64,000 nt of DNA from Candidatus Magasanikbacteria bacterium GW2011_GWA2_56_11 (GCA_001004885.1 LCRX01000011.1:2000-65999), one strand, 5' to 3'; counted from the stretch's first letter, positions 1,640-62,084 are shown. Numbers and translations: made by a program. Notes: generated from the letters alone by a model not told the origin.

Positions 1640-2356
1640 TTAGGAGGTGGCTGGCGGTCGCCGTGAAAATTTAAGTTTGTACATAACAGTAAAGAATTCC
1701 CAAATGTCTTTTTTGCTCAGCTTGGACCGCCCGCGGCGCCGGTCATTGAACACCACCGGCACTTCGATGATGCTGAAGCCGGCCTGCTCGGCCCGGTAGA
1801 GCAGCTCTTCCTGGAAAGCGTAGCCGTTGCTTTTGACGGTATCCAGGGCGATAGACTTGAGAGCCTGGCTCCGGAAACAGCGGAAACCGGCGGTAACGTC
1901 GCGCACCCGGAGTCCTAAGAGCAGACGGGAAAAGAACATGGCGCCGGCGCTGGAGAGCCGTCGCCACAGGCTCCAGCCGACGATTTTACCGCCCAGAATT
2001 TTGCGCGAGCCAATGGCTAAATCGTGGTCGGCCGCGGCCGAGAGGAGACGGGGCAAATCGGCCGGATCATGGGAAAAATCCGCGTCCATTTCAAAAATAT
2101 AATCGGCGCCGAGGGCCAGGGCTTTCTTAAAGCCCGCAATATAGGCCGAGCCGAGGCCGAGTTTGCGCAGCCGCTTGACCAGGTGCACCGGATAGTCGGC
2201 GCGCATGCCCTCTACCACTTCGGCCGTTTTGTCCGGCGAGTTGTCGTCGACCACGACTATCTCGAGCTCGGGGATGCGGAGCGCGAAGATTTGGGACACC
2301 AGGGTGGCGATGTTGTCGCGTTCGTTATAGGTAGGGATGACGATAATCGGCTTCAT
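1640..2356 (-). CDS. GT2 glycosyltransferase, polyprenol/dolichol-phosphate mannosyltransferase-like
   Basis: N-terminal IVIPTYNE…VVDDNSPD and DAD motifs typical of Dpm1-like GT2 enzymes. Confidence 0.8.
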   Translation of the reverse strand: MKPIIVIPTYNERDNIATLVSQIFALRIPELEIVVVDDNSPDKTAEVVEGMRADYPVHLVKRLRKLGLGSAYIAGFKKALALGADYIFEMDADFSHDPADLPRLLSAAADHDLAIGSRKILGGKIVGWSLWRRLSSAGAMFFSRLLLGLRVRDVTAGFRCFRSQALKSIALDTVKSNGYAFQEELLYRAEQAGFSIIEVPVVFNDRRRGRSKLSKKDIWEFFTVMYKLKFSRRPPATS

Positions 2357-3207
2357 AGCGCCAGGCTTGACCGCCTTTCGGCCAGGATAACGGTATTGGC
2401 CAAAAGCCGGGCGACTGTAATCGGGCCGATGCCGCCCGGGGTCGGCGTTACATAGGCAGCTTTGAGGCGCACCTCGTTTACGTTGACGTCGCCAAACATT
2501 TTTTTCCCCACATAGTCAACCCCGGCGTCAATAACCACGGCGGACGGACTCACCATGTCGCCGCGGATCAGGTCTTTTTGGCCCACGCCGCTCACGATGA
2601 CGTCGGCGTGGAGGCATTTTTGCCGGATGTCCCGGCTGGCGCTGTTGACGGTGGTAACGCTGGCGCGCGCGTTCATCATCATGATCGCGAGCGGCCTGCC
2701 GACCAAGGCGCCGGTGCCGACGATGGTAACATTTTTCCCTGCTAGGCTAAGGCCCAGGTTTTCGAGTATAGACATAACCGCTCCCGGCGTGGGGGGAACA
2801 ATAATTTGGTCGTTCATGACCAGCTTGCCCAGATTGGCATGGGTGAGACAGTCCACGTCTACCTCCGGCAGAACCGCGTTCAATACTTCGGCCGTATAGA
2901 GCGGTTCTGGCAAGGGTAGCTGGACGACAAGGCCAGAGAGGGCCGGATCGGACTGAATTTCGTTTATGCGCTCGATGATCGCGGCGCGCCGGGTGTCTGC
3001 CGGCAGAGGGTGCAAAGCAAAATCTATCCCGATTTTTTTGGCCGCCAGGCCTTTGTGTTTGACATAAGCGGCCGATGGGGCTGATTCACCGACCAAAATA
3101 ACCGCCAGCTTGGGCACCAGGCCGCGGACTTTGAGAGCGGCTACTTTCTGCGCCGTCTCGGCGTGGATTTTTTCGGCGATTGCCCGGCCATTGATGAGGT
3201 TTGACAT
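2353..3207 (-). CDS. folD: bifunctional methylenetetrahydrofolate dehydrogenase/cyclohydrolase
   Basis: 284 aa; FolD-like N-terminus (LINGRAIAEKI…) and Rossmann GxGxxVG region. 4-nt overlap with the upstream glycosyltransferase gene. Confidence 0.9.
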   Translation of the reverse strand: MSNLINGRAIAEKIHAETAQKVAALKVRGLVPKLAVILVGESAPSAAYVKHKGLAAKKIGIDFALHPLPADTRRAAIIERINEIQSDPALSGLVVQLPLPEPLYTAEVLNAVLPEVDVDCLTHANLGKLVMNDQIIVPPTPGAVMSILENLGLSLAGKNVTIVGTGALVGRPLAIMMMNARASVTTVNSASRDIRQKCLHADVIVSGVGQKDLIRGDMVSPSAVVIDAGVDYVGKKMFGDVNVNEVRLKAAYVTPTPGGIGPITVARLLANTVILAERRSSLAL

Positions 3208-3246
3208 GCCGCTATAATAGCAAGCCAGGGTCCAAAATTCAAGTAC

Positions 3247-3274
3247 TTGCGGAGAGCGAAAAAAGTGTTAATAT
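3247..3274 (+). promoter_or_regulatory. candidate sigma70-like promoter for greA (TTGCGG-16-TAATAT), near-leaderless
   Basis: Hexamer spacing read directly; the -10 ends 6 nt before the greA ATG. Divergent region between folD and greA. Confidence 0.3.
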
Positions 3275-3280
3275 ACCTGC

Positions 3281-3784
3281 ATGCGGACGCTTAACCGAAA
3301 AGCGGAGAAAAACCGCCCAGTCAAGCCTGACGCTATCCTGACCGAGAGCAAGTTTTTGGAACTTAAGCGCCAGCTCGAGAAACTCAAAAACGCGAGCCGG
3401 CCGCAGGCAGCGTCCGAAGTCCGGCGGCTGGCTGAAATGGGGGATTTTTCGGAAAATTATGCCTACCAGATCGCCAAGGGACGGCTGCGGGGCATAAACA
3501 ACACCATTCTCAGGCTGGAACACGAGCTCCAACAGGCGACTATTATCGCGCCGCCGGCACAGACTGATACGGTGCAAGTGGGCCACGCCGTTACTGTCGA
3601 ATGCGGCGGACAAATGAAAATTTATCGAATACTGGGGTCAGCGGAGATTGACCTCGAAAAGGGGATTATTTCGCGCCACTCTCCGCTTGGGTCCGCCCTT
3701 TTGGGGCATAGAGTCGGAGAAACAATCAAGCTTAAGCTCGGGGAGAGGGAAGTTGAATACCGGGTAAAGAAAATTGAATCCTAG
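3281..3784 (+). CDS. greA: transcription elongation factor GreA
   Basis: 167 aa; N-terminal coiled-coil plus C-terminal FKBP-like domain with conserved acidic tip residues. Confidence 0.9.
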   Translation: MRTLNRKAEKNRPVKPDAILTESKFLELKRQLEKLKNASRPQAASEVRRLAEMGDFSENYAYQIAKGRLRGINNTILRLEHELQQATIIAPPAQTDTVQVGHAVTVECGGQMKIYRILGSAEIDLEKGIISRHSPLGSALLGHRVGETIKLKLGEREVEYRVKKIES

Positions 3785-6789: not shown

Positions 6790-6998
6790 CTGGGTGCGGC
6801 CGGAGGCGGCGCGCTTGTGTATTTTGGCTTAGTTGGCATAATTTAGGTTATCGCTAATCTTGATTTAAATCAAGTTGAAACTTGGATTCGATAAACTAAG
6901 CGTTTGGCTTGCTTCGTCCTTGTTGGTTCGGGACTAATGAGGTATCTTGGATCATCCGCCGCCTGCTTTTTTGAGTTGAATCTTACCGTCTTGGATAT

Positions 6999-7030
6999 AA
7001 AAATAATGGCTAATTTTAGCCATTATTTTC
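6999..7030. terminator. perfect 14-bp-stem hairpin (aaaataatggctaa / ttagccattatttt), likely terminator of the AT-rich islet operon
   Basis: Inverted repeat read directly; sits 3' of the 7086-7871 minus-strand gene. Confidence 0.4.
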
Positions 7031-7085
7031 GAGCTCGCATACAGGGACAGCTTCCGAATGTTTATTCAATATAATCTACTGTAAT

Positions 7086-7871
7086 CTATATAGGTTTTTT
7101 AACAATTTTTTCTGCTTGTTGGATAGCGCTCACAACCAATTCAGATGTTGTCCCTCCAAGATGGTAATCGGCATTCTTTAACACATCGTTAGTCATAACT
7201 AATAAATACATCAATGATAATCGATAAGTCTGCGCTTCGTTTTGTTTAGTCATACTTATAGCCAATAATTTACCATGTGACTCTTCCGCTAATCCTTTAT
7301 AATGAAAATACCATTGTTCTCCTCCGTTAATCTTAGAATTTTTACAAAGAGACCACATCGTTGGAAAAGGGTCTAATTCTTTTTCTTTAATAGTATTTAT
7401 GTCTGGAAATTTACCTTGAGAAAATTTATCATAATATTTTTTAAATTCCAAAGTAGCTAATTTTTCATTATTAGCTTTTTCATTATCGTAGTGTCGTTTA
7501 CATATTCTTAAGCATTCTTTTGTGGCTATTTCTTCCTGCACATCATTTTTTTGCCGAGTAAAGTACTCTAATCTGAACGTATTCTCCATGACTGTTCTTG
7601 CTGGGTAAAATGCAAATCTACGATTTTTTCCTTTTCCCAAAGAAACCGCAAAATCAACATTTTCCCAAATACTCTTTATCGTTTCATATAGATACATGTG
7701 TTTTAAAGTATCAGGGTTCTCTTTTTTGATATATTGATCAATTAGTTTAAGTTGTTCATATGCAACAGCTCTTGTAATTTTGAACGCTTTTTCAACCCGT
7801 GTCTTCCGTTGCTGTTCTGTAAGTTTACTTATCCAAAAATCTGAAAATTCATTTTGAGATAGTTGTATCAT
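7086..7871 (-). CDS. hypothetical protein (261 aa), AT-rich islet gene 2
   Basis: Strong coding asymmetry in AT-rich DNA; no recognisable family. Confidence 0.6.
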   Translation of the reverse strand: MIQLSQNEFSDFWISKLTEQQRKTRVEKAFKITRAVAYEQLKLIDQYIKKENPDTLKHMYLYETIKSIWENVDFAVSLGKGKNRRFAFYPARTVMENTFRLEYFTRQKNDVQEEIATKECLRICKRHYDNEKANNEKLATLEFKKYYDKFSQGKFPDINTIKEKELDPFPTMWSLCKNSKINGGEQWYFHYKGLAEESHGKLLAISMTKQNEAQTYRLSLMYLLVMTNDVLKNADYHLGGTTSELVVSAIQQAEKIVKKPI

Positions 7872-7882
7872 ATTTTAATGAT

Positions 7883-9058
7883 CTATATTGTTAACTTTGC
7901 TACCAAAAGTGTTACTATGTTATTCATCGATTCTATAACTAACCCTATTGTCTTTTCGTCTCTTAACACAAAACCTTTGTGTGCGTAGTTACACCGTTTT
8001 TCATACAAACGATTGAACCAAGGAAGTAAATCTGGTTTAATAGCATTAATACCTCCTATTATATATTTTTTATTATCCGATCTGATATCCTTATCTGGAA
8101 CGAATAAATGTTCTAAACAACAATATAATAATAAAATTTTAGCACCTAAATCTGGTATTTGTGAGGCCGAACTTAAAATATCTATAGTAGGTGCAACATC
8201 GTTCATGTTGTTATGTTTCCAAGGGTTTTTTAAACTTTCAAATATTTTTTTATTATCAAGCATAAATTTTTCTATTCCGCCAAACGTCCTATTATCAAGC
8301 CACATTTTAGAAAGTCCTCGATACCCAAAAGAAAGAAAAAGACATCCATCAGGTATTTTAACCCACGATTCTTTCGAGTCTTCTTCCCAACAGTAGCAAC
8401 CCTGTGAATTTTCACCCAAAAACACAGAGCTTGTTGGTGCCGTAAGCGGTACTTCATTTTGTCCAAAATCCATTTGACAATGATATACAAAGCTGGCAAT
8501 TCTCAGCATGTTCAAGAATATTCTCATGTGTGATGCAGAATACCAATAGCAATATGTTTCTGATCCAAAACTACTAAAACCAAAGGATGGGGAACAAAAA
8601 AATCTTTTTGCATCACTTTGTTCATATTTTTTAAGCCCAGGTTGCAGTTGTTTGTATTTTTTCAATAGTTCGTCGTTATCAAAAAACGGTACAAGTGGTA
8701 TATCCATTTTTTTAAATAATCCATCAAAAAATTCCTGTGGACCAACATCAGTAGAAGGATTAATAACAGGAGTGCTAAAATGACTAATTTCTGTTATTAA
8801 TACTCTCTGCTTAATAGTTTGTTCTGCTAAATCAAAATATTTATTTATCACAGATTCAATCACATCTGTTTTTGACGCCCATCTAAAAATAAAAGAAATC
8901 TCGTGAGCACTAGAATGTCCTCCGACACGCTGATAATATTCATCTTCTGAATTGACAGCAAAAAACAACTTACATTTAAATAAGCCCCGTACGACATCCA
9001 TTGGTAATATTTTTAACTTCTTTTCTTCAAAAAAGTTCACATTCTTTAAAAAGCACAC
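7883..9058 (-). CDS. hypothetical protein (391 aa) with C-terminal Rx4H (RCNYAH) HEPN-like motif, AT-rich islet gene 1
   Basis: Long ORF in low-GC DNA. C-terminal …LYEKRCNYAHKG… fits the HEPN Rx4-6H signature. The true start may be the internal M at ~9001. Confidence 0.55.
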   Translation of the reverse strand: MCFLKNVNFFEEKKLKILPMDVVRGLFKCKLFFAVNSEDEYYQRVGGHSSAHEISFIFRWASKTDVIESVINKYFDLAEQTIKQRVLITEISHFSTPVINPSTDVGPQEFFDGLFKKMDIPLVPFFDNDELLKKYKQLQPGLKKYEQSDAKRFFCSPSFGFSSFGSETYCYWYSASHMRIFLNMLRIASFVYHCQMDFGQNEVPLTAPTSSVFLGENSQGCYCWEEDSKESWVKIPDGCLFLSFGYRGLSKMWLDNRTFGGIEKFMLDNKKIFESLKNPWKHNNMNDVAPTIDILSSASQIPDLGAKILLLYCCLEHLFVPDKDIRSDNKKYIIGGINAIKPDLLPWFNRLYEKRCNYAHKGFVLRDEKTIGLVIESMNNIVTLLVAKLTI

Positions 9059-9212
9059 TTATAAGATGTCTTGGCTGATAGTATTTTTCTTGTCTATACT
9101 GATCTTTTAAGGGCATCTGCATAGCCAAAGCCACCTCTTTGTCAGCTTCACTTTCTAATTTGGAATATACTTGATCACCAATTATTTCTTTTATTTTATT
9201 TAAAAAATTCAT
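9027..9212 (-). CDS. small hypothetical protein (61 aa)
   Basis: ORF overlapping the annotated start of the 391-aa gene; coding status uncertain. Confidence 0.25.
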   Translation of the reverse strand: MNFLNKIKEIIGDQVYSKLESEADKEVALAMQMPLKDQYRQEKYYQPRHLISVLFKECELF

Positions 9213-9217
9213 AGTTT

Positions 9218-9379
9218 TTATTTATCCATTTTCTCCCTATAATCAATTTTAGATAAAACATCAAAAGCCTCAACCAAATCATCAGCACACTTCTGCGCAT
9301 CCTCAAAACTTAATTTAACGCCGGTTTTCTTTTCATATATATCCTGAAATTCTAGGACGAGTTCGTCGGAAGGAGGCAT
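9218..9379 (-). CDS. small acidic hypothetical protein (53 aa; MPPSDELVLEFQDIYEKK…), below the ORF-track size cutoff
   Basis: Hand-translated; in-frame stop 6 codons upstream of the ATG. Lies between tRNA-Gln and the islet genes. Confidence 0.3.
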   Translation of the reverse strand: MPPSDELVLEFQDIYEKKTGVKLSFEDAQKCADDLVEAFDVLSKIDYREKMDK

Positions 9380-9579
9380 ATTATTGAAGTTAATGACTAA
9401 TCCCAGTTTACTCTAAAGCCAGATCTAGTTCAATAAGTTCGAATCCTACTGAGAGTGGTGGTTAGTGCATTGCATTTTTAGCCAAAAATTTATAGTGTAA
9501 AAACCACTTCCGAACCGATTGTTTCTTCTCTCAACTAAAAAGAAAAACAGACTATTTTTAGTCTGTTTTCTAAATCGAG

Positions 9580-9650
9580 CTCGGGGCCAGGGATTCGAAC
9601 CCCGATAGGCAGAGCCAGAATCTGCAGTCCTACCATTAGACGAGCCCCGA
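9580..9650 (-). tRNA. tRNA-Gln (anticodon CTG)
   Basis: Cloverleaf folded by hand: acceptor TCGGGGC/GCCCCGA, D-stem GTCT/GGAC, anticodon stem GCAGA/TCTGC with loop TTCTGGC, T-arm CGGGG-TTCGAAT-CCCTG; 71 nt. G37 is atypical. Confidence 0.75.
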
Positions 9651-56897: not shown

Positions 56898-57368
56898 ATG
56901 GAGTTTAAAATTTACGCCAGCGCCGTTATTGAGCAGAACGGCCGAATATTGTTGGTGCAGGAGGGGAAGGCAGATAACTTTGAGAAGTGGAACCTGCCCT
57001 GCGGCCACCTGGAATTGGCCGAAATGCCGCTAGACGGCGCCAAGCGTGAGACATTTGAGGAAACGGCGCTCACGATTGAGGTTACCGGATTTCTCGGAGT
57101 CTATAGCTCTGTCGGCGCGAATCATTCGATCCGGTTCGTCTATTGTTCAAACGAATTCGCCGGCGAGGCAAAGCCGGGCGACGAGATATTGGCCGTAAAG
57201 TGGTTTGAGCCGGTCGAACTCCGGAACTTGGATGAACAGCGGTTCGTCAGCCCGCTTGTACTTGAGGCCGCCGTCGCTGATTACGTTAACGGTCGCCAGT
57301 TTCCGGCCACGGTTGTGCGCAAGATAACAATGGACAACAAAATTAAGTACCATGGAGAGGTCGCATAG
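56898..57368 (+). CDS. NUDIX hydrolase
   Basis: Nudix box G(x5)E(x7)REVFEETAL-like (…GGHLELAEMPLDGAKRETFEETAL…). Confidence 0.8.
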   Translation: MEFKIYASAVIEQNGRILLVQEGKADNFEKWNLPCGHLELAEMPLDGAKRETFEETALTIEVTGFLGVYSSVGANHSIRFVYCSNEFAGEAKPGDEILAVKWFEPVELRNLDEQRFVSPLVLEAAVADYVNGRQFPATVVRKITMDNKIKYHGEVA

Positions 57369-57442
57369 TTGGCCTAGTGCGCACGCTTGGAAAGCGTGTA
57401 TACCGAAAGGTATCGAGGGTTCGAATCCCTCCCTCTCCGCCC
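57354..57442 (+). tRNA. tRNA-Ser (anticodon GGA), long variable arm
   Basis: Acceptor GGAGAGG/CCTCTCC, 3-bp D-stem, anticodon loop TTGGAAA, variable hairpin TATACCGAAAGGTATC, T-arm GAGGG-TTCGAAT-CCCTC. The 3' terminus reads GCCCA. Confidence 0.85.
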
Positions 57443-57461
57443 ATTTCGGTCGCGAACGAAA

Positions 57462-58490
57462 CTAGGAATCTTGGCTCTGCTTAGCCAAGGCTGAGGGCGC
57501 CGTGCACCTGTCGTCCGGCTCGGGTAGCCCGGGTGTTGCCCACCCGTTGCCCAAGAATGGTACATCCGGTGCCACAAGCACACGGACCGCTTCGTACAGC
57601 GAAGACGGCGCGAGGTGAGCATAGCGTTCGGTGACTTGGACCGTGCTGTGTCCTAGGAGAATCTGCACGGAGCGAATCGGTACTCCGCGCGAGACGAGCT
57701 GCGACGCGAATGTGTGCCTCAGTACGTGCCAGCCTATCGGGCGGACACCTGCCCGGGCACACGCCCGGTACAGGAGTTTCGATGTGGTCGCCTCAGGAAT
57801 CGGCGTTCCGTCCCGACGAGGGAAGACGAGTCCGGATGTGCCCCGCCGGCTATCGAGAGCGCTCGCGAGGTCCGGGGCCATCGGGATGTGGCGAATGCGG
57901 TTGTTCTTCGGCGTTCCAAGAATCCCGCGCACGATGGACCGCTGCACTGTTATCAGGTGCGTCGTGAAAGTAATGTCGCGCCATTCGAGCGCGGTCAGCT
58001 CGCCTCGGCGCATTCCCGTGCGCAGTGCGCAGAGGATCATCGCGTGGGTCTGCGCATCTGGTGCTGCCGCGAGCAGCCGAGTGCAGTCCTCCGGGCTTAG
58101 ATAGTTGTCTTTGGGAGGAGCGGTCTTGAGCCAGTGCATGCGAGGGCTCCGCTCGAGTTCCTCCCACTCCTCTGCAGCGGATAGGGCGGCATGGAGTACC
58201 GTTAGATGGTTGTTGATCGTCTTCGCGCACAGGCCGTCAGCCAGGCGGTCTGCCTTGTAGCGCTCGATCCGCGCGAGAGTGATCTCGGCCAAGACTAGCG
58301 ACCCGAAAGCAGGAACGAGGTACCGGGCGAGGATGCCCTCCTTGGCGCGCACCGTTGACGGGCGGTTGTTCGTGCGAGCGTAGATGGTCATCCAGCGTGC
58401 CGAAAAGGGCCCGAACTGGATCAGGTCTTGTGCGCGCCGTTCAAGTGGCTCTCCGCGCGCCAGGCGTCCTCGTCTTGGGGGGCGAGCCAT
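57462..58490 (-). CDS. int: tyrosine-type site-specific recombinase/integrase
   Basis: R…HxxR…Y catalytic pattern (WHVLRHTFAS, LLGHSTVQVTERYAHL); adjacent to tRNA-Ser. Confidence 0.85.
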   Translation of the reverse strand: MARPPRRGRLARGEPLERRAQDLIQFGPFSARWMTIYARTNNRPSTVRAKEGILARYLVPAFGSLVLAEITLARIERYKADRLADGLCAKTINNHLTVLHAALSAAEEWEELERSPRMHWLKTAPPKDNYLSPEDCTRLLAAAPDAQTHAMILCALRTGMRRGELTALEWRDITFTTHLITVQRSIVRGILGTPKNNRIRHIPMAPDLASALDSRRGTSGLVFPRRDGTPIPEATTSKLLYRACARAGVRPIGWHVLRHTFASQLVSRGVPIRSVQILLGHSTVQVTERYAHLAPSSLYEAVRVLVAPDVPFLGNGWATPGLPEPDDRCTAPSALAKQSQDS

Positions 58491-58851
58491 CGGTTGCGGG
58501 AGCTCCCGTCGACGACGGCGGCGCGCAGTCGCCCGCGGCGCCCGGGCCCTCGTCGCCCGACAGTGCCGACGCCTCCGGCTCGGGCTCGTCGTCGAAGAGC
58601 CCTCGCAGCTTCTCGGAGCTCGAGCCGAACAGCATCTTCCTCAGCCGCCGGATCGAGGCCCCCTTGGTCTCCAACTCCCGGGTCAACGTGGTCAGGGTCC
58701 CTACAGCGCCTGCAAGCGTCTGATGGTCCTCGTCGCTCAGCACTGGGCGGACACGCTCGACGATGGCATCCAGATCCTCGGCGGAGACCTCCTTGCGCAC
58801 GGCCGGCCGCGGCGGCGGGCGCTTCTGGTCCGGCTTCTTCGTTCGCTTCAT
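58444..58851 (-). pseudogene. IS66-family transposase (TnpC) N-terminal fragment
   Basis: Tail of ORF 58441-59730 reads MKRTKKPDQ…LRKMLFGSSSEKL…, the leucine-zipper / FGxxSEK motif of IS66 TnpC N-termini. No zinc-finger or DDE region follows. It runs into the integrase gene. Confidence 0.45.
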
Positions 58852-59726
58852 CCCACCCCCGACAGCCGCTCCCGGAAGTCTCCGGTCAGCGGGTAGCCCA
58901 TCACCTCTTTGAGCGGACGGTTCGCTTGATGCGTCTGGTCGTCCTTGCCGCGGCCCGTGGTCAGGCCGAGGCGGACCCAGTTCGCCGCTCGATAGCACGT
59001 GCCCTTGAAGCGGCCCGGATCCACGAAGGTCTCCAGCCAGTAGACGGGATGTCCATACAGCCGCTCCCACTCCCGGGGCACCCGCTGGGCCATCTGACCG
59101 AGCAGGTGCGAGGCCAGGTGCTTGACCTCGACCCACGGAAGGATCAGGAATCGGCTGTTGTAGGCCAACAAGCGGATGTTGGCGCGGCGTGCCGCCCCGG
59201 ACCACCCGATGTACTGGTCGCGCGGACCCAGGTGACGCGGCGCCGAGCTCCACGTCAGGCACGCCAGGGGCCGGCCTCCGGCGCTCACCAGGAACTTCAG
59301 GTGCTCCCCGACGGGTTGCACGTAGCCCAGGTAGTGGTGGCCCTCCAGCAGGCCGTCGAACATGGGCTCGCTCTCGCTGCGCCGCACCTGCTCGAAGCTC
59401 AGCTCGCCCAGCTCCGAGAGCCGGCAGCGGACAGGCGTCTGGTCGACCGTCACCGGCCGACGACGCACGCGCCGGGCCAAGGGATTGGGTGGCACCTGCC
59501 GCACCGCCGGAAGCTCGATGTGGCCGCCACGGTGCAGCTCCAGCATCAGCCCGCGGCAGACCATGTCGCGAAGGCAGCCGTTGGTCTGCCTCCAGTCCCA
59601 GGCTTCGCAGAGCTTCGTCGACAGCACGCGCCGACTGGCGGAGGGGTGGGCCGCGATCAGCTCCTGGATGAAGCCGACCTCCTGCCGTGTGACCGTCCGC
59701 CCTCGATACTCGATGACCGCATCCAT
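58848..59726 (-). CDS. DUF4338-like protein (tentative; same Pfam family as Druantia DruA)
   Basis: ~293 aa from MDAVIEY; motif …VYWLETFVDPGRFKGTCYRAANW… recalled as DUF4338-like. Its TGA overlaps the ATG of the TnpC fragment (ATGA). Confidence 0.4.
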   Translation of the reverse strand: MDAVIEYRGRTVTRQEVGFIQELIAAHPSASRRVLSTKLCEAWDWRQTNGCLRDMVCRGLMLELHRGGHIELPAVRQVPPNPLARRVRRRPVTVDQTPVRCRLSELGELSFEQVRRSESEPMFDGLLEGHHYLGYVQPVGEHLKFLVSAGGRPLACLTWSSAPRHLGPRDQYIGWSGAARRANIRLLAYNSRFLILPWVEVKHLASHLLGQMAQRVPREWERLYGHPVYWLETFVDPGRFKGTCYRAANWVRLGLTTGRGKDDQTHQANRPLKEVMGYPLTGDFRERLSGVG

Positions 59727-60007
59727 GCACCGCGAGTACCGTTGGTGCGACTGGAACGCAAGAAGAAAAGCGACGTCATGTTCACGCGGCCGGAGCCACC
59801 CGTCGCCACACCGCCGCCGCATTCGTTTGGCTCGGATCGCCGCCACACAGCAGCACCTGGAGCTCGTGCGCCTGCAGCGCGGTGACCGGCTCCGGCCCGC
59901 AGCACCGAGCGGCAGACCTGGGCCATCCCGTCGATGCCGCGCCGAAAGTCCACCGGCTGGATGGCCACCAGCACCCGCATCTGCGGCGTGATCTGGATCA
60001 CCGGCCG
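59727..60007 (-). pseudogene. IS66 Orf2 (TnpB)-like fragment, degenerate
   Basis: …PVIQITPQMRVLVAIQPVDFRRGIDGMAQVCRSVL… matches the IS66 TnpB N-terminal consensus. Downstream sequence is out of frame or degenerate. Confidence 0.4.
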
Positions 60008-60441
60008 CGGCTCCAGAACGCCCGCGCTAGCCCGACCACGTCCACCGCGGTCCCCGCGCCCAGTCGCACCATCATATGCGCCCCGTCGCCGCTCGACAGC
60101 TCGACGACGATCCCGGCGTCGCTCCGCGGGGTCCACGGCGAAGTCCCGACCTCGCCGAGGAGCTGCGCCCCCTCCAACTCCACGAACGTGCCAGGCAGGG
60201 CCACGCCCGTGCTCTTCGAACCCTGGCCCTCGCCGAGCCGACTCTTGAGGGAGCCGTAGCCCACATCCACGAACTGCGAGACCCGGTACACACCGAGCCT
60301 GCGCGCAAGCGCGACCGCCTCCTCCCAGAGCGGCTCCGGCATCCGCACGCCCCTCCGCCGATGCCGCCGCCAGTCGGCGACTGCACGACGAGCTGCCTCG
60401 AGCCGCTGCTCGAGCACGCCGGCGTCCTTCGTCCCTCGCAT
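59998..60441 (-). CDS. IS66 Orf1 (TnpA)-like HTH protein (tentative)
   Basis: 147 aa; helix-turn-helix-like …PEPLWEEAVALARRLGVYRVSQFVDVGYGSL…; sits immediately 5' of the TnpB-like fragment, as in IS66 elements. Confidence 0.3.
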   Translation of the reverse strand: MRGTKDAGVLEQRLEAARRAVADWRRHRRRGVRMPEPLWEEAVALARRLGVYRVSQFVDVGYGSLKSRLGEGQGSKSTGVALPGTFVELEGAQLLGEVGTSPWTPRSDAGIVVELSSGDGAHMMVRLGAGTAVDVVGLARAFWSRGR

Positions 60442-62084
60442 GGCAGGTGATCCCTCCGAAACGTCCTGGCGGAGAGACTACCCGGCTCTCAACGGCAGTT
60501 CATGCAGGCCTGCCGAACGGACACCCCTGGCCGCGATCGCGGTCGCTGTTCGGGTGCACATGAAGGCGAAGCCGAGTCCAGACGCGGGCGGCCAGCCGAA
60601 GCCGCCCGGCGACCCGACCCCGGGCGACGAACGCCCACCCGAGCCGCCGAAGCCCTGGCAGCACCCGTACGCGTAATCCGAATGGGCGAAGGCTGGCGGG
60701 AGCCATGCGCTGGCTATCGCGCCGCCGAGTTCGCGCAGATGACCGCGACGCTGCTGGCACCGGCGGGACCCTCGACGCAACGAACCGAGGGCCCGGACGA
60801 TCCGTGACGGCGAGTCGGAGCGCGGGATTTCGCTTGCGGCTGGTGAGGCAGCGGCGGAAGATCGGTCCGTGGTCTCCGCCCGAGGAAAGGAGGTGGTGCA
60901 GTAACCCGAAGGTGCTGAATCGGGTGCATGCCAACGAGGGTGGATAGCTTGCACCGGCACGACCGCATGTCGTGCGGACTCGGTCGTGTGTCGCCCATCC
61001 GCGTCGGAGGGCGACGGCGGCTGTGCTTGTTCTGCGCCGCTTTCACGACGAGCCGGTGCTCCCTAAGACGTGCAACGCGTCCGAGGTCGCCCTATTGAGC
61101 TGCCGGGGGCGACGATCTCGCTCGTATCCCGTGACCGGACACACTCGGCACGGCCACGAGTTCGGCACTCCACCTTCCTGGCCGCTACACCAGCCCGAAA
61201 GCGCTACGGCGTCTCTATGCGCTGGCGGGTGTTGAGCCGCTGGGTTTGCCTCCAGGCAACTGCCGTGGGTGAGCCCGCGCGGGAGACGCTGCGCGCGCCG
61301 ACGATGGCGCGGACCGAGTGCGCTCGATCGGACGGGGAGCCGGCGGCCCCAGGAAGAGCGCCGGCAAGTTCTTGACCTGGCCCAGCCAGGGAATCGGTGC
61401 TCGCGATGGGCAGGCAGGAGGTGACTTCCACGCTGACCACGTGACACGAGCCAACACGGCGCCGCCGAGCGCTGATGCACTCCCGGCAGCGGGCTTCCTG
61501 CTTGCTCACGAGCACCGAGCACAAGATCTCGCGGCCTTCCTGCCGGAGGGCGTCACGGCCGACGCGCACGAAAACCAGCACCTGGGTAGGTGCTGGTGAG
61601 TAGTTTGGGGGCTGGTCCACGCGGTCGTCTGACCAGAATCAGAGGGATCTCGCCGCAGGCGGCGAACCCGTGCGCCCGGGCCTCCGGTACCGCCTGGCTT
61701 CGCTGGGTGGGACGGCGCGCCTGATGTGAGTAGAAGTCACACCAGGCGCGGCCGGCTGGACAAGCGTGTGCGCACGAGCGCCCTGGTAACCATCCCCGGG
61801 GGCATGCGGTTGAGCCTGAACGAACCAGGCCCGTCCTGGGTGTGCACGTGGAATCGCCTGGCGCAGCTTCGTAACGATAGCACATTGCGCCAAAAATGTC
61901 AATGATTCCATCAGTCTCGCTCGCGGCTGGCTGGAGGGACCGGAGTTGCGCGGCGTCGCGGGCAAGCCGGTTCAGTGCATCGTGTACGGCGAGAGGCCGG
62001 AGCAGCACCGATAGATGCCACGGTGACTGGAAGGGCGGGCAGCTCGTGGTAGGCCGCGATGAGGGTTCGAAGCCAGTCCCTGAG

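Follow-up and report, generated by a model that had tools for sequence, protein, structure and literature searches.

A putative integrase-less cassette at a tRNA-Gln gene of a Candidatus Magasanikbacteria genome carries candidate abortive-infection RNase genes

Introduction

Gao et al. (2020) are said to have described ApeA as a single-gene HEPN anti-phage system. Bacteria of the candidate phyla radiation (CPR) have tiny genomes and few recognized defense systems. Here, we analyze a 64,000-nucleotide (nt) stretch of one groundwater CPR genome, that of Candidatus Magasanikbacteria bacterium GW2011_GWA2_56_11 (GCA_001004885.1; LCRX01000011.1, 2000 to 65999), and refer to this whole stretch as the window. 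It contains an AT-rich islet at the 3' end of a tRNA-Gln gene. We consider it on balance probable that the islet is a horizontally acquired, integrase-less cassette flanked by attachment (att)-like repeats and carrying candidate abortive-infection ribonucleases (RNases).

ApeA consists of one HEPN protein whose N terminus is without known homology; this protein cuts tRNA anticodon loops and forms ligand-activated, doughnut-shaped oligomers with a ligand pocket (bioRxiv 10.64898/2026.01.26.701840). The largest gene of the islet belongs to a family (here, the large family) whose members, like ApeA, are single proteins in which an N-terminal region without known homologues precedes a modeled C-terminal HEPN domain, with no obligatory partner. 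In contrast to ApeA (~580 amino acids [aa] and predominantly helical), large-family proteins are ~437 aa long, contain alpha/beta elements in the N-terminal part, and carry a Cys after the Arg of the HEPN motif. The window protein had no match in the PADLOC library, which presumably includes ApeA models, and the Pfam HEPN_Apea model matched 0 of 33 family members (E ≤ 0.1 to 1); we therefore liken the large family to ApeA in its predicted mode of action without counting it as part of the ApeA family. One homologue bears the UniRef name "Apea-like HEPN," but this is a name only that the HEPN_Apea model does not bear out. Also among the closest known systems are HEPN abortive-infection proteins of the AbiV/AF0298 (2hsb) type and Pfam DUF5677. 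HepT-MntA (HEPN-MNT) systems have the HEPN fold with an Rx4H motif that is predicted for the large protein, and HepT toxins are its top structural neighbors; unlike those systems, however, the islet has no MNT nucleotidyltransferase, 32 large-family loci have no conserved partner, and the large protein is three times bigger and has an N-terminal region of its own.

With regard to mobility, cis-mobilizable elements (CIMEs) are deletion derivatives of ICEs (integrative and conjugative elements) or IMEs (integrative and mobilizable elements) that have lost their integration genes but keep attL and attR (PMC6323972). The islet is likewise flanked by attL/attR-like repeats and lacks integration and transfer genes. 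Unlike for CIMEs, no parent ICE or IME was found for the islet and its sister cassettes, which span 1.8 to 4 kb, have a dedicated small gene in common, and carry exchangeable cargo. The tycheposons of Prochlorococcus form tRNA-flanked island arrays (bioRxiv 10.1101/2020.12.28.424599). The cassettes resemble them in tRNA-gene integration, in borders with partial tRNA copies, in accretion in tandem, and in having defense genes in the cargo, whereas the tyrosine recombinase and replication genes that tycheposons encode are both missing from the cassettes, and the host is a CPR bacterium. Short recombinase-less cargo units, conserved recombination ends, and tandem stacking are shared with integron cassettes; in contrast to these, no attC-type imperfect palindrome or IntI/attI/Pc platform was seen, the 3' end of a tRNA serves as the target, and tblastn with five recombinases found no integron integrase near the islet. 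We regard the novelty as moderate, lying in a HEPN architecture of the ApeA kind and in the form that integrase-less cassettes at tRNA ends take in these bacteria.

Results and Discussion

An AT-rich islet bounded by a repeat of the tRNA 3' end

A first-pass annotation of the window, made from the sequence alone, had described a compositionally foreign block at the 3' end of tRNA-Gln, with all of its genes in one direction and without an integrase or transposase, and our analyses bore out each of these points. The GC content is 28 to 38% over positions ~6900 to 9600 (300-nt windows; 31.6 to 32.8% on a 1-kb grid) versus 48 to 71%, typically 52 to 63%, in the rest of the window and ~57% in the host genome, and the islet is the only strongly AT-rich stretch of the 64 kb. 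The tRNA-Gln gene (anticodon CTG), the putative integration target, occupies 9579 to 9650 on the minus strand (ARAGORN; Rfam tRNA, 52.4 bits), so that the islet begins at its 3' end; a scan of the islet with Rfam matched nothing but the tRNA. All four open reading frames (ORFs) of the islet lie on the minus strand and encode 53 aa (9218 to 9379), 61 aa (9027 to 9212), 391 aa (7883 to 9058), and 261 aa (7086 to 7871). Searches of all four against Pfam, PADLOC, PHROGs, and NCBIfam yielded no significant match, and neither these nor tblastn with five recombinases revealed an integrase or transposase in the islet.

The limits of the element, ~7029 to 9593 (~2.55 kb), are recognizable from a direct but imperfect repeat of the tRNA 3' end at 7029 to 7047 and 9575 to 9593, in which a repeat search found 15 of 19 positions to match, 9 nt of them as an exact run. 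The left att-like copy, TCGAGCTCGGGGCCAGGGA (plus strand, 9575 to 9593), overlaps the last 15 nt of tRNA-Gln, and homology to the sister elements described below starts here. The right copy is contained in the right end, CATTCGGAAGCTGTCCCTGTATGCGAGC[TCGA] (7029 to 7068, minus strand). Directly after the tRNA, a terminator scan detected an element-borne hairpin with a T-run (9543 to 9570, minus strand; -13.3 kcal/mol, z = -4.3). It is kept in the sister elements and now serves as a terminator-like structure of tRNA-Gln. A second hairpin with a T-run lies at 7000 to 7029 and consists of a perfect 14-bp inverted repeat (7000 to 7013 and 7016 to 7029) that folds at -16.7 kcal/mol (z = -5.3 versus shuffles). 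The first-pass annotation had recognized this perfect hairpin but had taken it for the terminus of the islet; it is located just beyond the right end of the element and probably served as the terminator of tRNA-Gln in the host before the insertion displaced it.

Conserved ends and variable cargo in sister elements

Neither the conserved ends of the element nor its sister cassettes had been noticed in the first-pass annotation. They came to light through the 53-aa gene (9218 to 9379, minus strand), which had been counted as one of two tiny ORFs and is a conserved component of the left end; it is a candidate regulator or recombination accessory factor. Its homologues number 8 (76 to 96% identity), and the contigs that carry them (L048, L049/L050, and L051/L052; 34 to 41% GC) have two DNA blocks in common with the window. 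The left-end block (9205 to 9602, minus strand; ~390 nt) is 82% identical to these contigs by blastn and alignment. Its start, at the core CGAGC(TCGA), falls within the last bases of tRNA-Gln, and it continues through the hairpin and T-run and through conserved noncoding boxes (including CGGTTCGGAAGTG) to the 53-aa gene. The right block comprises 28 to 33 nt, corresponds to 7033 to 7065 of the window, and is 91 to 96% identical to the sisters (nhmmer E = 1.3e-11); the right end mimics, in degenerate form, the T-arm and acceptor end of a tRNA. Among 52 fetched loci, the exact end patterns occurred only in these elements, and they were absent from a viral contig collection.

Each element, 1.8 to 4 kb long, has a different cargo after the 53-aa gene. 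Where the window carries two HEPN-type genes, L048 encodes proteins of 207 aa, 492 aa (with an RNAFYH motif), and 225 aa and a NUDIX protein (PADLOC candidate PDC-S07); L049/L050 encodes a 207-aa protein and a DUF4238 protein (Pfam, 5e-38; PADLOC DUF4238-Pers, 1.3e-9); and L051/L052 encodes proteins of 124 aa and 367 aa (RGKIVH). The 53-aa gene itself is, by its codon differences, under purifying selection across elements, with synonymous-to-nonsynonymous ratios of 13:1 relative to L051 and 12:5 relative to L048. We rejected the possibility that it encodes an antitoxin for the HEPN gene, since it is absent from all other large-family loci. In L049 (300 to 445) and L050 (325 to 470), the 53-aa gene is frameshifted in a G-run, with its N terminus in another frame and a 41-aa C-terminal ORF called.

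In L048, an internal right end (3173 to 3207) is followed by a second left end that lacks the ORF (3231 to 3281). Since the internal right end abuts this second left end, L048 consists of two cassettes in tandem. The sequence upstream of its first left end (640 to 700) resembles a degenerate right end, and the array may be longer. A different, locus-specific hairpin terminator is found beyond the right end at every locus, as would fit an element that brings a terminator for the tRNA with it and displaces the one of the host. In L050 (1 to 105), the cassette abuts a different 3' end that resembles that of a tRNA or transfer-messenger RNA (tmRNA) (GTGGGTTCGAATCCCACCCGCCGAGCA); ARAGORN made no call there, the contig perhaps being cut. 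This different end in L049/L050 implies that the cassette family is not restricted to tRNA-Gln. No recombinase is encoded in any of these cassettes.

Could the shared ends be conserved host flanks of a homologous-recombination hotspot at which cargo is swapped? The length of the left block (~390 nt), its inclusion of a conserved gene, and the failure to find a recombinase would all fit. However, this block is AT-rich and foreign in a 57% GC host, identity begins exactly at the last bases of the tRNA, the right block is just ~30 nt of tRNA 3'-end mimic, and the sequences beyond both ends differ at every locus. The tandem right-to-left-end junctions of L048 are, moreover, typical of repeated site-specific integration. 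Host flanks of this kind thus appear improbable to us, and we return to a cassette with ends of its own.

Such a cassette would be integrated by site-specific recombination at the last bases of the tRNA, with a (C)GAGC core, by a recombinase supplied in trans. Before insertion, tRNA-Gln would have run directly into AAAATAATGGCTAA...; upon insertion, the element would have donated a new terminator to tRNA-Gln and pushed the host's own 2.55 kb away. If the cassette were excised, its circular junction would join the right end, ...GTATGCGAGC, to the left end, TCGATTTAGAAAACAG.... Boxes CGGTTCGGAAGTG of the left end and CATTCGGAAGCTG of the right end have TTCGGAAG in common, and they may be recombinase-binding sites. 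A further left-end box, GTAGGATTCGAAC (9437 to 9450 of the window; aligned in L048, L049, and L051), is the reverse complement of a T-arm-like sequence; neither ARAGORN nor Rfam calls anything at this box.

A more far-reaching proposal, which we put forward as a speculation and think doubtful in its entirety, is that CPR bacteria have an integron-like exchange system. In it, recombinase-less cassettes of 2 to 4 kb, defined by a tRNA-3'-end mimic and a block of hairpin plus 53-aa gene, would be stacked in tandem at the ends of tRNA and tmRNA genes and would carry single-gene immune effectors back and forth among widely differing hosts. The trans-acting recombinase would have the 53-aa protein as a new accessory factor, and one effector would be an ApeA-like HEPN protein with a novel sensor fold.

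The large gene is interrupted by a single frameshift

The 391-aa ORF had been described as an orphan, a description that no longer holds: it has >234 homologues with 48 to 59% identity, nearly all of them 430 to 445 aa long (family length, ~437 aa). The 61-aa ORF, the other supposed tiny ORF, aligns with the N termini of these homologues (MSFL..KIG..Y..LE.EAEKEVALAMQMPL...). This ORF and the 391-aa ORF overlap where six T residues form a run at 9029 to 9034 (GAA CUU UUU UGA AGA AAA), and removal of one T yields ...KECELF-EEKKLKILPMDVV..., which equals the family consensus. Since the ORFs overlap at this run and removal of one T restores the consensus, we conclude that they represent a single ~442-aa gene with a +1-nt frameshift. 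The 61-aa ORF (9027 to 9212, minus strand) is the N-terminal fragment of this gene of the ~437-aa HEPN family, and the 391-aa ORF (7883 to 9058, minus strand; annotated as 372 aa from an ATG at 9001), in which all family-invariant residues are kept, is its C-terminal part.

The run of six T residues is identical in six independent assemblies from several samples, which are 100% identical over 2.9 kb. The lesion is thus real in a clonal population rather than a one-off assembly error, and we rejected assembly error as its cause. Recoding of the UGA was also rejected as an explanation of the break, because the frame must still shift. The window copy of the large gene is, from its sequence, probably inactive or at best yields a low-level product via a +1 slip on UUU-UGA. 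In four other loci (L012, L031, L032, and L033), the large gene is broken up into two to four ORFs (match regions near 8001 to 9320), which could reflect pseudogenization of a costly gene or long-read homopolymer errors.

A programmed +1 frameshift or phase-variable switch on CUU-UUU-UGA could, alternatively, keep a toxic HEPN protein low or switchable. At the RF2 site, CUU-UGA, a +1 frameshift takes place where a slippery codon precedes an in-frame UGA. Here, too, tRNA-Phe can re-pair perfectly from UUU to an overlapping UUU beside an in-frame UGA, and reading on in the shifted frame gives back the family sequence without a missing residue. The gene is otherwise intact, and the site is fixed in the population, a point that carries little weight since the six assemblies are clonal. 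On the other hand, there is no Shine-Dalgarno-like stimulator upstream, no other family member is shifted at 9029 to 9034, and six T residues are short for phase variation. We therefore regard programmed or switchable frameshifting as quite improbable.

A different reading of the same lesion is that the islet is a decaying remnant, in which the large gene is a pseudogene and an immobile cassette has no function in this organism. We judge this unlikely. It would account for the frameshift in all six assemblies, the imperfect repeat (15/19), the missing integrase, and the split copies in other genomes. Decay is harder to reconcile with the fact that, but for one T, 1.3 kb of 31% GC sequence stays open with every family-invariant residue kept. 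Similarly, the 261-aa and 53-aa genes are intact, the latter under purifying selection. Decay would also bear only on activity in this genome and not on the identity of the parts, which we continue to interpret as those of a cassette with candidate RNase genes.

The large family has a modeled C-terminal HEPN domain

The Rx4H (RCNYAH) motif near the end of the large protein, for which the first-pass annotation had proposed a HEPN-like character, is encoded at 7979 to 7996 (minus strand) and proved to be a family-wide feature, with the Arg present in 118 of 118 aligned members and the His in 117 of 118. An AlphaFold2 model of a homologue, P0003, made with the 118 aligned sequences (predicted local distance difference test [pLDDT], 95; predicted template modeling score [pTM], 0.93), places the motif in a C-terminal helical domain. 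In this model, helix 1 (335 to 351) and helix 2 (357 to 372) are followed by a helical insert (381 to 392), helix 3 (394 to 413), which ends in R407-x4-H412, a loop (414 to 419), and helix 4 (420 to 443). E369/H370, invariant in 118 of 118 members, lie inside the CCLEH sequence of helix 2, and the usual E-x3-[KR] spacing is absent from this helix in the large family. HEPN domains as defined by Anantharaman et al. in 2013 have an acidic residue in helix 2 and, in many cases, an insert that separates helices 2 and 3 (PMC3710099). The modeled helix order and the position of the motif at the end of the third core helix fit this layout. The predicted HEPN domain (P0003 residues ~335 to 443) corresponds to 7886 to 8212 of the window (minus strand).

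Structural comparison gave the HepT toxins 8xdj, 7ae2, and 5yep as top neighbors, along with 1wwp, 1jog, 2hsb, 1ylm, 4nqf, and 1ufb as well as sacsin, Csx1, Csm6, HepS, Las1, and AbiA. Since the tools did not list the aligned residues, we infer from the motif and the helix order that the HEPN match belongs to the C-terminal domain. No significant match to the large protein was found by Foldseek against the Protein Data Bank (PDB), PDB profile searches with both protein families gave no match, and Pfam matched none of 31 large-family members and two Bacteroidota homologues. In the confident AlphaFold2 model, the C-terminal domain of the large protein is a predicted HEPN domain. The N-terminal ~330 aa contain alpha/beta elements in the model and match none of the solved structures.

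We predict the ~442-aa protein to be a metal-independent RNase acting as a dimer. Its N-terminal part is predicted to hold the HEPN RNase inactive until infection, upon which the activated protein would cut tRNA or other RNA and so abort the infection, as does ApeA, the nearest precedent.

Rx4H-type motifs were also seen in unannotated proteins beside large-family genes, namely, RSALFH (L039, 9404 to 10144) and RNMLVH (L046, 6618 to 7664), and in the sister cassettes, where RNAFYH (L048) maps to 1675 to 3153 and RGKIVH (L051) maps to 794 to 1897. These proteins, none of which matches Pfam or PADLOC models, may represent further undescribed HEPN families.

The large family is accessory and often found near recombinases, tRNAs, and defense genes

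Among 185,579 species genomes (one per species), 32 from four phyla encode a large-family protein (37 to 59% identity). The hosts belong to the Patescibacteria/CPR, Acidobacteriota, Verrucomicrobiota, and, in three cases, Bacteroidota; the latter include the isolates Draconibacterium sediminis, whose gene is intact (WP_045030812.1), and Labilibacter sediminis (TLX72838.1). The GC content of the gene is usually lower than that of its host. Clustering of neighboring ORFs from 33 loci revealed no conserved partner gene; the sole recurrent neighbor is a large serine recombinase (5 loci, plus L045), and at least 7 loci have a serine recombinase or tyrosine integrase in the vicinity. Of 32 loci, 7 have a tRNA or tmRNA at a distance of no more than 1.6 kb (84 nt away in L023 and 132 nt away in L025). 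This also applies to L044, where a partial tRNA-Arg duplicate is located between tRNA-Arg and the large-family gene. In L039, the order is tRNA-Lys, tyrosine integrase, and large-family gene, and in L040, the gene is surrounded by an island with tRNA-Gln, SIR2, a serine recombinase, a BamHI restriction-modification pair, methylases, a terminase, and HamA. By its distribution and neighborhoods, the large family is accessory and mobile in character.

A census of 150 ORFs within 2.6 kb of the gene at 29 loci identified defense-like neighbors in at least 8 of the 29, based on PADLOC models and, for L026 and L040, Pfam defense domains; since the census had no matched background control, we take it as moderate evidence only. 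The PADLOC matches were to HamB (L024, 4e-75), SngC (L028, 1.9e-208), DpdF (L033, 2.7e-163), DrmD/HKD-Snf2-like (L037), ZorD-like (L009), a NERD+UvrD candidate (L027), and IetA-like (L025) models. SIR2, BamHI, and HamA were counted among the defense-like neighbors, and one further neighbor, not assigned to a locus, matches a type IIG restriction-methylase model. Several census matches are helicase domains that also match unrelated helicase models. The first-pass annotation had asked whether homologues co-occur in defense islands. Large-family homologues are often neighbors of recombinases, tRNAs, and defense genes; the pair with the 261-aa gene did not recur at any other locus examined.

These neighborhoods also bear on the idea that the cargo consists of selfish addiction or exclusion toxins, which stabilize the cassette or fight other elements and give no protection against phages. 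Many HEPN proteins are toxin-antitoxin (TA) toxins or toxins of interelement conflict (PMC3710099), the genes ride several kinds of mobile element, and the frequent split copies fit a costly gene. Against this, both families lack a conserved antitoxin partner, the large gene lies among genes that match phage-defense models in at least 8 of 29 loci, and the sister cassettes carry DUF4238-Pers and PDC-S07-like genes. We consider purely selfish toxins decidedly unlikely and favor abortive-infection RNases as the cargo.

The 261-aa gene is an independent HEPN-like cargo gene

The 261-aa gene (7086 to 7871, minus strand), 11 nt from the large gene, encodes a predicted all-alpha, HEPN-like protein that had also been called an orphan. 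A word-index search returned 10 relatives, and a profile search of 1.84 billion representative proteins returned 91. Within this family, R92 and H199 are invariant; E96, Y191, Q40, and F169 are nearly so; and E96-x3-R100 is present. A contiguous Rx4-6H is absent from the 261-aa protein, in which R92 and H199 are 107 residues apart. Pfam DUF5677 (PF18928) matches 15 of 76 profile-linked relatives (best E = 2.2e-5) and does not match the window protein. We regard the 261-aa protein as a putative, distant DUF5677/HEPN-like helical bundle. It had previously been viewed as an uncharacterized partner of the large protein, but it would be HEPN-like in its own right.

The first-pass annotation had gone on to propose a two-gene cassette, i.e., a defense or TA module in which the 391-aa HEPN protein would cooperate with the 261-aa protein and the tiny ORFs would be accessories. 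The genes are indeed adjacent, co-directional, and 11 nt apart, and both products are helical and HEPN-like. However, the 261-aa family was beside the large gene in 0 of 32 genome loci and 6 further loci, and the genes downstream of the large gene elsewhere show no mutual relation by BLAST. No MNT-type antitoxin is present, and profile-profile comparison with hhalign finds the large and 261-aa families unrelated. Elsewhere, the 261-aa family occurs alone, beside integrases, restriction-modification genes, or a MORC-like ATPase. In L042, a relative directly follows a tyrosine integrase, and in L043, one lies beside the MORC-like ATPase. In L041, a member (P0127, 7001 to 8275) has a NUDIX domain fused to its N terminus, and its neighbors comprise type I restriction-modification genes along with a serine recombinase and an AAA_13 ATPase. 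A cooperating module is thus very improbable. By these occurrence patterns, the 261-aa gene is independent cargo rather than a partner of the large gene, and the cargo of the cassette would comprise two independent single-gene modules.

NUDIX recurs in this data set: beyond the fusion in L041, it is present as separate cargo in L048 (180 to 656 and 4169 to 4615), where it matches the PADLOC candidate PDC-S07. A DUF5677 ORF has been reported in a preprint to be enriched beside serine recombinases (PMC12632615).

Weighing a defense role

Several results weigh against an integrase-less cassette with abortive-infection RNases. The large gene is frameshifted here and split in four other loci, and the window copy may be dead. 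Neither window protein matches PADLOC, Pfam, NCBIfam, or PHROG models, and tblastn with both families found no match in phage and plasmid collections. The residue after the motif Arg is Cys in 108 and Asn in 8 of 118 members and so departs from the usual N/D/H, a polar residue here being a typical but nonobligatory HEPN feature. No recombinase is linked to the cassette ends, the repeat matches at only 15 of 19 positions, and neither an empty site nor a circular form was found, a metagenome scan with the flanking C39-like protein having returned one irrelevant locus. The census lacks a control, as noted above, and a DUF5677 ORF tested in Enterococcus faecalis was not among the protective ORFs in the preprint (PMC12632615). 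Taken together, the observation behind the first-pass annotation was real and its interpretation partly right, and the defense role that it suggested is plausible.

As a candidate for a new immune protein that combines a sensor with an RNase, the large family is within easy reach, with intact genes available in Draconibacterium sediminis and Labilibacter sediminis. The cassette ends provide a searchable signature, TTCGGAAGCTRTCCSTGTAYGCG, and with it a route to more defense cargo and to the recombinase behind the movement of integrase-less islets. Should both families turn out not to be defensive, the islet would be an ordinary decayed tRNA islet.

A second putative element in the window

The tblastn search with five recombinases gave a single match in the window, at 57462 to 58490. 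There, tRNA-Ser(GGA) (57353 to 57443, plus strand) is followed by a 342-aa tyrosine-recombinase-like ORF (57462 to 58490, minus strand), beyond which lies a block of 67 to 71% GC at 58 to 62 kb in the ~57% GC genome. The region from 57353 to 62000 looks like a second, GC-rich integrated element, which holds the only recombinase seen in the window.

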